From a phage: DNA of 56,589 bases. Numbering within the stretch: position 1 is the stretch's first letter; each line of letters opens with the position of its first letter. The notes under the pieces were generated by a model that saw nothing but the letters and a program-made list of their open reading frames with translations, ran no database searches and was not told the origin of the DNA. The stretch lies in sequence record PZ445422.1. The stretch is one strand, 5' to 3'. The position numbers were made by a program, and so were the translations under genes. Positions 12,404 to 19,066 of this stretch are shown piece by piece.

Positions 12404-12796
12404 TTACTCCGCTAATGTGTAAGGGATACCGGATGCTTTAATCCGTCTGTACATATCCATAGTACCAGCTCCGCCAGGAAACACAATAGCGTGATCTGGT
12501 TTAGGATCAGTATCCAGCATTAATTGGTTGCGGTAAGCGCCTGCTTGTGCATTATAAGCACCCTTGGCGTTATACCGTATCTTGGTATTTGGTAAGGAAA
12601 GATTGTCCCACGGGGCTGGGAACGCTTCTGTCTTAATACCGTTGCGCTCTGCCCAATGTGCGCAAATCCGGTCAACACCGTCAGCGTCACCGTGGCGAAG
12701 TGTGGTTATCCTTCTTTGCATATGCAGCTTATCCAATTGAGCGTAAATATACTCCACATGCTTAAAATCTCGACCTCCGGTGACGACTAATAGCAT
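12404..12796 (-). CDS. SLOG-family (DUF2493/YspA-like) nucleotide-binding protein
   Basis: MLLVVTGGRDF...HGDADGVDRICAHWA...AIVFPGGAGTMDMY matches the Rossmann-like SLOG pattern (GGR, GxDxxA, GGxGT). Confidence 0.5.
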   Translation of the reverse strand: MLLVVTGGRDFKHVEYIYAQLDKLHMQRRITTLRHGDADGVDRICAHWAERNGIKTEAFPAPWDNLSLPNTKIRYNAKGAYNAQAGAYRNQLMLDTDPKPDHAIVFPGGAGTMDMYRRIKASGIPYTLAE

Positions 12797-14158: not shown

Positions 14159-14338
14159 ATGGTTCCACTGCCCGAAAAGCTATGCAAATCAAACACCACC
14201 TTATTAACAGTGACAATAGAACCAGCTTTCAGTTCCTGGAACTCCGTACCATCGCCCGGAGTATACCCAACACCGCCAATATCGGTCAGTAAACGATACT
14301 CTTTACCTTCAACAATCTCTTCTACACGCATTCTTCCT
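14159..14338 (-). CDS. small hypothetical protein (about 59 aa, below ORF-track cutoff)
   Basis: own translation of minus strand: MRVEEIVEGKEYRLLTDIGGVGYTPGDGTEF...; fills the gap between neighbouring co-oriented genes. Confidence 0.3.
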
Positions 14339-14573
14339 GCTCCTCTACATATTTAGTGACACATTTTTGAAAATTAAGAACGATATTTTTCTCTTTTACG
14401 GAATGAAATTTAACACGTTCTGGACAGATAATCCAGCCTTCAAAACGTTGAGTAGCGTCATTCCATGCTGCCCGACCATAATACCCGCGATAGGGGCCTA
14501 ATCGCATTGCATTTACCTCTGTAACCACATTGCTGGAGGTGCTGGGTGTAGCGCTTGCACTGGTGTCGCACAT
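14322..14573 (-). CDS. hypothetical protein
   Basis: 83 aa; strong AGGAGG RBS upstream of ATG at 14573. Confidence 0.5.
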   Translation of the reverse strand: MCDTSASATPSTSSNVVTEVNAMRLGPYRGYYGRAAWNDATQRFEGWIICPERVKFHSVKEKNIVLNFQKCVTKYVEEQEECV

Positions 14574-15281
14574 AAATACCTCCTTGATGCTCTAAAAAAC
14601 AGGTGTGAATTGATAGAAATTGGTTGCATCCGCTTAAAGATGATAGCTATGGAGCAGCTACAAGACGAATTATACGTTGACGACTCAGAATTTACTACCA
14701 AAATCCATATATTTAGAAAGGATGAGCGCAATATATTCAAAAAGAAGGTAGGTGGGGTCATGGATGTAGGTGGATAGGAATGTGACAGGTGAGATTTAGA
14801 CAAGGACTTACTATCAGGATAGATAAGGCGCCCTCGGGTGATTATTAGTACCCTGATGATCCTAGGTGGGGTCTATGAGTCGGCTCATTGGACCGGTCTA
14901 TGACTGCAAGATCTGTTATTCTTCCAGACGAATCTATTTCATTCGTTATTATATTAATGTATATCGTGAGCTGGCTATGTATGTGGCGTGCATATAGCAG
15001 AGCAGGCCGTACGAGTTAACGTACAGCCTGTGAGTGTTGAAATTAGCGCCGCTTTGTGGGGTACAGCGTGCTCGTTGTGTGTTGGTAATGCATTACCATT
15101 ACCTTTGAGCTTTAGCTCGCTGTGGTGCTGCTGTGTGCGTTATCCTTGCGAGCGTATGTCCGCATATATGCTTTTACCGCGCATCATGGCACTATGCCAG
15201 CCATGAACTGCATATTCTGCGCGCATTGCTGCAATTAATAACGCGTGCTGTGCGCGTGTAAGCGTGTATTTGCGTGACATA

Positions 15282-15467
15282 TTAGTACACCTCTACCAGT
15301 TCGATAATGGCTGCAAAATCGGCGATTCCAATCTGCATCTCTGCGCGAACGAAACCTTCTGCAGCTACACGGTTCGGAGCTGTAACGTCTCCGATATATT
15401 CGCCATAGTACATAACTTTAAATGTTCTGTTGCTATTATTTACAGACTTTACAGTGTTCGTAGACAT
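15282..15467 (-). CDS. hypothetical small protein
   Basis: ATG at 15467 with GAGGTG RBS (internal start of track ORF 15282..15482). Confidence 0.4.
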   Translation of the reverse strand: MSTNTVKSVNNSNRTFKVMYYGEYIGDVTAPNRVAAEGFVRAEMQIGIADFAAIIELVEVY

Positions 15468-15535
15468 AATACACCTCGTCATAATTAGTTAGCTTATTAA
15501 TGGGCACTGTAATAATGCCCATTGTATAAACAAAC

Positions 15536-18237: not shown

Positions 18238-18360
18238 ACTACTTCCGGGCCAGCCCTCCTACTGGTCCGGTTAACCGCGCAATAAAGTCCTCCTCCAATA
18301 TCCCGCGATTAAGCGCATTATAGCTTGATATACCTTCCGATCACAATAGTTCAATAATTT

Positions 18361-18720
18361 ATTCCATTATTCCAATTATTCCGGAATCTGGAATAATACT
18401 GTATATCCATACACCATATTCCATTAACAATCCTGTCACGATTTGTATTCTTTCACTTTTTGTGAGTTTTGGGACTTTTTAACAATGACCCAAAAACATT
18501 CAAATAATACCAATAGGTACTATATACATTACTAATAAATCCTTATTTTATATATATTTATGGTATTACTTATTAACTTTTAGTTTCTATCCGTTTTTAG
18601 TCTGTTGACTGAAAGTTTTAGGTTTTTGCGCTCTGGAGTACCGATTCCATTATTCTATCAAGTAGGAATAATTTATTCCACTTCCATCATTTGGATTTCT
18701 ACCCATTCCATTCACTATTC
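18361..18720. repeat. AT-rich region with multiple direct and inverted TTCCATTATTCC / GGAATAAT elements
   Basis: copies near 18361, 18375-18397 (inverted pair ttattccggaat...ggaataat), 18415, 18645, 18663, 18705; no credible ORF. Confidence 0.5.
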
Positions 18721-18867
18721 ATTTAGTATCTATCTTATTGATTTATATACGTTTTTTACTAACAGTCGGGATTAGGGTATTAGGGTAAAAAATGCGTTTT
18801 ACCCCAAAACGCAAAAACTTACTGCACCAACTTATTGTTTTTATTAAAGTTTTTAGCAACAGTGGCA

Positions 18868-18965
18868 CCACAAAACTTCGCAAAACTTTGCAAAACTCAC
18901 AAAACTTTCCGTCACATTGTGCAAACTGTGGAGCACCAACTATTCCTACCCAAAACTTTCCATTA
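18868..18965. repeat. tandem 9-10 bp iterons CAAAACTT (4 contiguous copies plus one downstream)
   Basis: ccacaaaacttcgcaaaactttgcaaaactcacaaaactttcc then cccaaaactttcc; helical-phase spacing. Confidence 0.5.
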
Positions 18966-19066
18966 CATGTGGTTATATATTAACAATCCGCTCACATCAT
19001 AACTTCAGGTGGAATAATTGTGGCTGGCCTACTATGGATTGTGTATAGTGCTGTTAGGAGGTAGGT

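Follow-up and report, generated by a model that had tools for sequence, protein, structure and literature searches.

A conserved non-coding element in the early gene block of Seuratvirus phages and its possible role as a regulatory spacer

The window analyzed here is the whole stretch of 56,589 nucleotides (nt) of sequence record PZ445422.1, which is the complete genome of Escherichia phage GottfriedDienst (Bas21, MZ501071.1; Queuovirinae, Seuratvirus), reverse-complemented and rotated. Window positions x convert to the deposited record as 65581 - x, valid for x >= 8992. In that record, the structural genes occupy 1-21 kb and a divergent promoter region lies at 49.1-49.5 kb, from which the replication and 7-deazaguanine genes are read leftward. 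From the same divergent region bas21_0075-0095, small early genes annotated without function, are read rightward; they lie on the minus strand of the window. About 1 kb into this early block, after four small genes, the operon is interrupted by a gap at 14574-15139, and this gap, with the conserved element it holds, is the subject of this report. The minus strand, which carries the flanking genes, is referred to below as the sense strand.

Upstream in the direction of transcription, the gap is bounded by bas21_0078, a 46-amino-acid early gene on the minus strand (15140..15280) that is annotated in the deposited record and lies outside the non-coding element. Its protein is conserved at the same length in relatives, with identities of 98% in CAjan, 52% in Seurat and 57% in yong3, and a 46-amino-acid homolog is encoded by metagenome contig L144 (in the 52-57% range). 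The gene has a Shine-Dalgarno (SD) sequence, GAGGTG, 9 nt before its ATG, and its start is coupled to the stop codon of the preceding gene. An earlier, sequence-only reading of this region had judged a 45-codon open reading frame (ORF) near 15144..15280 unconvincing and had described a gap of about 700 base pairs (bp) between two minus-strand genes. The long gene-free interval is real; its size is not, because 15140-15280 is a conserved gene and the true gap is therefore 14574-15139, or 566 nt. On the downstream side lies bas21_0081 (14322..14573, minus strand), an 83-amino-acid gene with an SD sequence, AAGGAGG, at 14586..14580. This gene accompanies the element in all lineages, and its product matched no family in Pfam.

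The composition and repeats of the gap were compared with the rest of the window. The gap had been called GC-rich, which is not borne out: its GC content of 43.3-44.4% is close to the 44.7% of the window and falls at the 30th percentile of equal-sized segments. The G/T-rich segment reported earlier was recovered, as the plus strand is 56.2% G+T (98th percentile of 566-nt segments), and both pairs of local repeats were found where they had been placed. GGTCTATGA occurs at 14870 and 14895 (0.29 copies expected; two copies were reached in 1 of 100 shuffles), and GTGGGGTC occurs at 14752 and 14866 (0.81 expected; two copies in 25 of 100 shuffles). The exact GGTCTATGA pair is found only in GottfriedDienst, the second copy being GGTCTGTGA in most relatives. 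The GTGGGGTC pair is part of an 11-nt repeat, TAGGTGGGGTC, the first copy of which lies inside an invariant block.

The gap does not code for protein. The ORFs annotated over the element DNA in GottfriedDienst and its relatives are mutually incompatible, differing in strand, frame and length. They include two plus-strand ORFs in GottfriedDienst, a 126-amino-acid minus-strand gp70 in Seurat and a 209-amino-acid fusion (CDS0082) in KS_W4; SHIN8 has four small ORFs distributed over the two strands, and several Seuratvirus records leave the element unannotated. The two deposited coding sequences of GottfriedDienst, bas21_0080 (14875-14997) and bas21_0079 (14988-15206), lie inside the element on the non-gene strand and are not conserved as ORFs in relatives. 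When every ORF annotated in relatives was searched by tblastn, the frames were inconsistent and the translations were of low complexity and mutually out of frame, and no protein homologs of these ORFs were found outside those annotations. Alignments of the element contain 1-nt and 7-nt indels, not multiples of three. Open stretches on the sense strand use different frames over identical conserved nucleotides, with stop codons that differ between lineages, and a substitution periodicity test over the element was flat, with no consistent 3-nt pattern. One plus-strand ORF with a protein-like translation (14640-14777) was considered and rejected, as it is broken in CAjan, STP-SP5 and L144. No conserved protein-coding gene was found in the gap, nor any conserved ORF within 14574-15139. 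The annotated bas21_0079 and bas21_0080, Seurat gp70, KS_W4 CDS0082 and several ORFs of SHIN8 and Dru_SM1 are very likely spurious.

Although untranslated, the element is under purifying selection as nucleic acid. It is present in 34-35 Seuratvirus records and in metagenome contigs, with divergent copies in Salmonella phage STP-SP5, Hafnia phage yong3 and contig L144. In these divergent relatives the element retains 60-74% identity, as compared to about 49% at flanking third-codon positions. In the case of Seurat, an Escherichia phage with the short form of the element, and STP-SP5, element identity is 0.67-0.72 and identity at third-codon positions of the flanking genes is 0.49; the long-form copy of GottfriedDienst has 0.58 identity to STP-SP5 overall. 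Blocks of 9-16 nt show no variation between lineages in which synonymous positions are nearly saturated. The conclusion of purifying selection follows from element identity above third-codon identity together with these invariant blocks.

The element is also a conserved island in a mosaic region. Genes upstream of it are common to only 4-11 of 24 loci, whereas the ends of the element and the 83-amino-acid gene are common to 18-24 of the 24, and the boundaries with variable genes coincide exactly with conserved blocks. The AACGCACACAGCG block is coding in Seurat and non-coding in GottfriedDienst. Transitive BLAST from L144 gave matches that stayed within Seuratvirus, and no match was obtained in 5,426 E. 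coli genomes. A scan of IMG/VR with the invariant 16-mer described below gave 17 matches, 14 of them by chance, and two degenerate patterns of the conserved core, run against IMG/VR, JGI metagenomes and GTDB genomes, returned mostly chance matches, including crAss-like contigs of about 100 kb. The pattern scans added several close copies and one divergent copy, L144; in the bacterial (GTDB) genomes they yielded no copy of the element.

The part of the element that is common to all variants is a core at 14701..14880, the sense RNA of which is C-rich, G-poor, unstructured and untranslated, and in these respects resembles a Rho-utilization (rut) site. In the sense RNA, 14721-14800 is 36% C and 6% G, about 4 standard deviations above the mean, and the core fills the top 7 places among about 1600 80-nt segments in a 16-kb block. 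The predicted minimum free energy of 14661-14800 on the sense strand is -12.4 kcal/mol. Among 798 140-nt segments in the 16.1-kb block, which average -34.4 +/- 6.5, it ranks first for lack of structure, and the wider interval 14661-14840 is the least structured, most C-rich and G-poor sense stretch of the block. A scan in the style of RhoTermPredict over the 16-kb strand placed the core first, with a C/G ratio of 4.8 and six regularly spaced C residues; elsewhere the ratio did not exceed 2.6. A composition peak at or adjoining the core was seen in six other lineages (Seurat, CAjan, WildeMaa, STP-SP5, yong3 and L144). Untranslated, unstructured RNA of at least 80 nt that is rich in C and poor in G is an established loading substrate for Rho. 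The core combines a C-rich, G-poor composition over at least 70-80 nt with little secondary structure in an RNA that carries no conserved ORF.

Within the core, five plus-strand blocks are invariant: AGGTAGGTGGGG (14746-57), GTGAGATTT (14789-97), ACTATCAGGAT.GA (14810-23), AGTACC (14847-52) and TAGGTGGGGTC (14863-73). The core is retained in all variants, including those in which an HNH gene has been inserted nearby, and its blocks are single-copy in the genome. In WildeMaa (L015 ~1480-1500), a plus-strand run of about 13 G residues takes the place of the roughly 35 nt that separate AGGTAGGTGG from GTGACAGG in the core, which is either a deletion or a homopolymer slip in sequencing or assembly.

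Downstream of the core, a compact module precedes the 83-amino-acid gene. It begins with a candidate promoter, P_A (14669..14699, minus strand), which consists of a -10 sequence, TATAAT (14674..14669), and a conserved upstream box, GGTAGnAAATTCTGA (14699..14685). The -10 is TATAAT in the Escherichia phages and TATACT in STP-SP5 and L144, and is conserved in three divergent lineages. At 6-7 nt after it lies hairpin h (14643..14661, minus strand), which reads GUAGCUG-CUCCA-UAGCUAU on the sense strand. Five stem variants of hairpin h occur in true homologs and each ends exactly at the invariant 16-mer that follows it; as a control, a hairpin of any kind was found at only 4 of 15 chance matches to the 16-mer. 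In four of the five variants the stem contains G.U pairs, which on the plus strand would be A.C mismatches. Such pairs work only on the sense strand, and hairpin h therefore points to use of that strand. The 16-mer itself (14627..14642, minus strand; sense CAUCUUUAAGCGGAUG) lies in the leader of the 83-amino-acid gene, is unique in the window and does not differ among the Escherichia Seuratviruses, STP-SP5 and L144, except that OddieOddie lacks one base. Its distance to the SD sequence is 17-53 nt (about 100 nt in STP-SP5). The P_A, hairpin h and 16-mer module is absent from yong3, which retains the core. In Dru_SM1 (L006 1699-2172), Skure (L011 935-1408) and WildeMaa (L015 917-1390), an HNH homing endonuclease gene stands in its place; this gene (equivalent to window ~14531-14764) replaces the promoter, hairpin and 16-mer together with the first ~22 codons of the 83-amino-acid gene, and the core is intact.

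Upstream of the core, the first part of the element is block a (15130..15142, minus strand; sense AACGCACACAGC), which contains the TAA stop codon of the 46-amino-acid gene. This block is invariant or nearly so in five lineages and is common to 21 of 24 loci, as compared to only 4-11 for the upstream genes; it encodes the C-terminus of gp69 in Seurat and is non-coding in GottfriedDienst, and its conservation as nucleic acid does not depend on which gene precedes it. Immediately past the stop codon lies hairpin region b (15083..15118, minus strand), which in GottfriedDienst comprises a palindrome, TGGTAATG/CATTACCA, and a hairpin, GAGC-TTTA-GCTC. Short-form relatives have one hairpin of 8-11 bp here. 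The arms covary between lineages (AGCTAATG/CATTAGCT in Seurat, GAGCTAGCCC/GGGCTAGCTC in STP-SP5 and GTGCAAC/GTTGCAC in yong3). In the short-form Escherichia phages, folding of this hairpin on the sense strand equals or exceeds that on the antisense strand; use of the sense strand is less clear for hairpin b than for hairpin h.

The middle segment of the element has two alternatives, either a long-form cassette of about 256 nt (14830-15085), found in GottfriedDienst and some relatives, or a segment of about 118 nt, rich in CGCACAGC, in the other Seuratviruses. The cassette contains a predicted promoter on the minus strand, P_B (14948..14977), which reads TAGCCA-N18-TATAAT and scored 10/12 in the promoter scan. 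In 10 distinct copies, AGCCAGCTCAC and TATAAT are invariant and the spacer is variable, and the site is annotated as a promoter in SA126VB. A 5' stem-loop (14928..14946, minus strand; ACGAAU-GAAAUAG-AUUCGU) lies at or adjoining the predicted P_B start, 7 nt after the -10; its stem is invariant and its loop varies between A and G. The strong promoters that had been suggested for the gap are in part supported by these data, since the sigma-70-like P_B and the candidate P_A are conserved, but neither is strong by consensus. Promoter-like sites in the whole region number 5, as compared to 5.1 expected by chance. Also in the long form only, an 11-bp hairpin without a U-tract (15003..15030, minus strand; sense CAGGCUGUACG-UUAACU-CGUACGGCCUG) is annotated as a terminator in phage SA126VB and includes a sense-strand G.U pair. 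In Dru_SM1 this hairpin is inverted (L006 2527-2554), with the loop flipped and the G.U pair on the other strand, which suggests an inversion by recombination between the hairpin arms. A further long-form hairpin (plus-strand GGTCTATGAG-TCGG-CTCATTGGACC) lies together with the GGTCTATGA repeat at 14870..14903 (minus strand).

A 566-nt stretch of RNA without ribosomes should be polar, and its occurrence in a tightly packed operon, together with the rut-like RNA, is the reason that the gap is read here as a transcriptional checkpoint. The reading favored, though tentative and with somewhat less than an even chance of being correct, is that the gap serves as a regulatory spacer, conserved and untranslated, which acts on transcription and through the sense RNA and divides the early operon by Rho-dependent termination and promoter restart. 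RNA polymerase starting from the divergent early promoters would transcribe the four small genes, up to 15140, and would then enter about 570 nt without ribosomes, hairpin-rich at 15140-14880 and C-rich and unstructured at 14880-14700. Rho would load on the C-rich RNA and stop transcription within the next 50-150 nt, around hairpin h and the start of the 83-amino-acid gene. The operon would in this way be divided into an immediate-early unit and a downstream unit, with the downstream genes expressed either from the restart promoter P_A, the transcript of which would open with a protective hairpin followed by the 16-nt box, or by way of antitermination. In long-form phages, the extra cassette upstream of the core would contribute P_B, also a restart promoter, and more hairpins. 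Features of the sequence are the basis on which Rho loading and termination, the activity of the promoters and the temporal role are proposed.

This arrangement resembles the Rho terminators of phage early operons, such as lambda tR1 and tL1 and those at T4 immediate-early/delayed-early boundaries, in having an untranslated, C-rich, G-poor, unstructured RNA of at least 80 nt, which lies a few small genes past the early promoters and is followed by a hairpin (a possible pause site) and the next gene. It differs from them in the long invariant blocks of the core, in the length of non-coding RNA (about 400-570 nt, which is much longer), in that its termination and Rho dependence are predictions, and in having no recognizable N-type antiterminator or second nut-like site. 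The hairpins that lie 7 nt after the -10 of both predicted promoters, and would thus stand at the extreme 5' end of the transcripts, are comparable to the 5' stem-loops that stabilize bacterial and phage mRNAs, such as that of ompA, a comparison in which the position of the hairpin relative to the transcript 5' end is deduced from the predicted promoters.

Several observations weigh against Rho-dependent termination with promoter restart. rut sites normally need composition only, not long invariant blocks, and Rho loading by itself does not account for the strict conservation of ACTATCAGGATGGA, AGGTAGGTGGGG and GGGTCGGGT. The position of P_B, upstream of the presumed rut site, would be unexpected for a simple terminator. 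P_A has no recognizable -35, its motif is single-copy in the genome, and neither yong3 nor the variants with an HNH insertion have it. Hairpin b folds better on the antisense strand in L144 and yong3, and the extreme G-richness of the plus strand would fit a plus-strand function equally well.

The strict conservation of the core and the position of P_B keep alive a model of specific recognition, of the nut/put or Rho-antagonist type. According to this model, which is considered rather unlikely, the invariant blocks would form a platform, as sense RNA or as DNA, that is recognized by a phage or host regulator and brings about read-through, by Rho antagonism or by antitermination like that of lambda nut or HK022 put. 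The 9-16-nt blocks are invariant despite near-saturated synonymous sites, where a compositional rut site needs none, and those of the core are single-copy. A recognition site within a rut region also has precedent, since boxB of lambda nutR lies between rutA and rutB of tR1. The 16-mer contributes a lead only: it contains UCUUUAA, the core of the rrn/lambda boxA, and is preceded by a hairpin, just as boxB precedes boxA in rrn leaders. This resemblance is weak and single-copy, and a 7-nt match to boxA would arise by chance in about 5% of cases in a region of such size (an estimate). The likeness to lambda nut sites and rrn leaders is that of a short box beside a covarying hairpin in a leader, adjoining a rut-like region. 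It is offset by the match of only 7 of 12 boxA positions (GCUCUUUAACAA), by the single copy, by the box lying downstream of the rut-like core and by the loss of the module in yong3 and the HNH variants; binding of NusB/NusE or a phage factor is hypothetical.

Other results also speak against a recognition platform. No second copy of the conserved blocks or of the P_A motif was found in the leftward early operon or elsewhere in the genome, and no second leader copy of the box at two or fewer mismatches. The core has no conserved boxB- or put-like hairpin, and no N/Q-like or other regulator was identifiable by Pfam among ten neighboring proteins. A more specific proposal, that the core blocks are the site of a new antitermination or Rho-antagonising system of virulent Queuovirinae that switches immediate-early to later expression, is distinctly improbable. 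Such a switch may take the form of a cis element of the nut/put kind, recognized by one of the four very small immediate-early proteins, or may involve a C-rich P_B transcript that traps Rho.

It is improbable, although slightly less so, that the element has little function of its own and represents either the remnant of a decayed gene or a boundary sequence kept for homologous exchange of variable early modules. In its favor are the highly mosaic neighborhood, in which conserved blocks sit at variable-gene junctions, the alternative long and short segments, the HNH endonuclease insertion and the flipped hairpin, and the long ORFs annotated over the element in Seurat and KS_W4. However, divergent lineages are much more alike over the element than at synonymous positions, and its extreme composition has been preserved, neither of which would result from neutral decay, and the annotated ORFs are the low-complexity, mutually out-of-frame translations already described, with no protein homolog outside those annotations.

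A plus-strand product appears highly improbable. The DNA over P_A also reads, on the plus strand, as a weak promoter, TTGACG-N16-CAAAAT (14677-14704), which scores 9/12, and variants with TGAC in the -35, an A-rich -10 and 16-nt spacing occur in STP-SP5, yong3 and L144. A G-rich antisense RNA that starts at this site and extends through the core might regulate early transcription or act as a protein sponge; the plus strand carries about 8-9 GGA motifs in about 290 nt, some of which, such as CAGGAUG, resemble CsrA sites. However, the best-conserved part of this promoter-like site is its spacer (TCAGAATTT), unlike a sigma-70 promoter, and the L144 copy lacks the final T of the -10. Most single GGA motifs are not kept between lineages, the CsrB/RsmZ-type models of Rfam found nothing, no plus-strand terminator is common to the long and short forms, and the wobble pairs of hairpin h fit the minus strand only. 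Nor does the plus strand have a conserved fold, as seen in the structural analyses.

Those analyses covered both strands and bear on the structured RNA that the sequence-only reading had listed among its possibilities, for which it had proposed a covariance-model scan. Such a scan with Rfam gave no match at gathering score over the whole window, nor at E<=10 over 14300-15500, and ARAGORN found no tRNA or tmRNA. Single-sequence folding gave z-scores of -1.06 (plus) and -2.30 (minus). RNAalifold, compared with 100 column shuffles for five sub-regions on both strands, gave z between -1.5 and +0.9, with no conserved fold and an unfavorable covariation term on the plus strand. A structured non-coding RNA is not supported, as there is no Rfam match and no conserved global fold on either strand; only short local hairpins are present, and the core is the least structured RNA of the block.

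The idea of a DNA-level site, whether an origin primed by an R-loop or G-quadruplex, a pac/cos site (also suggested in the sequence-only reading) or a T5-like injection-stop signal, is remote: it draws on the marked asymmetry of the strands, with runs of G (GGGTCGGGT and GGTGGGG, and three or four G3 runs in short-form copies), on the GCTGTGCG repeats that short-form copies carry 9-12 nt apart and on a location about 11% from a genome end if the ends are at terS. Against it, GottfriedDienst has the long form, in which the GCTGTGCG repeats do not occur, and hairpin h behaves as sense-strand RNA. Packaging at the element is unlikely with terS (record position 1, window 8991) about 6 kb away, an arbitrary record start and the only record that breaks inside the element, SLUR75, doing so through a 127-nt assembler overlap, and an origin is unlikely with a far better candidate at 18238-19066.

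Gene regulation in Seuratviruses and other Queuovirinae is, to our knowledge, essentially unstudied, and no description of the gap region, of a Seuratvirus transcriptome or of virion-end mapping was found in the searchable literature. Seuratviruses are included in the BASEL reference collection and serve in tests of defense systems. If the reading as a regulatory spacer is correct, a selected non-coding element found throughout the genus would mark the place at which these phages divide their early program. A spacer that consists only of a terminator and a promoter would be ordinary phage biology; more would follow if the invariant blocks are a new antitermination signal. The annotation can also be corrected, as the ORFs recorded over the element are very likely spurious.

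Gaps and sequences with a partial likeness to the element were noted in the early region of phages of related genera. The Providencia Craquatrovirus phages PSTCR7 (L034 730-1372) and PSTCR4 (L035 738-1381) have a gap of about 640 nt in the corresponding early region, with a C/A-rich, G-poor sense strand and many AATAAC-type repeats, and with no detectable homology to the element. Pantoea phage Vid5 (L036 ~1420-1500) shares only AAGAAGGTGGGTGGGGTC and ACTATCAGG with it; in Vid5, AAGAAGGTGGGTGGGGTC and a ACTATCAG/CTGATAGT inverted repeat lie inside an annotated 66-amino-acid ORF (gp84).

Two further features of the window were recorded. Among the ten neighboring proteins searched against Pfam, the sole match was that of a 130-amino-acid early protein encoded at 12404-12796 on the minus strand, which matched the YspA/cpYpsA-related SLOG family (PF10686, E=5e-18). 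The region 18238-19066 is an AT-rich, non-coding gap of 830 nt (GC 0.32 at 18501-19000) that coincides with the cumulative GC-skew minimum and lies directly upstream of the primase operon. It contains tandem CAAAACTT(T/C) iterons with a spacing of about 10 nt (18873-18908), other direct and inverted copies of the same motif and a terminator-like hairpin (18813..18793). On these features, it is a likely origin of replication.

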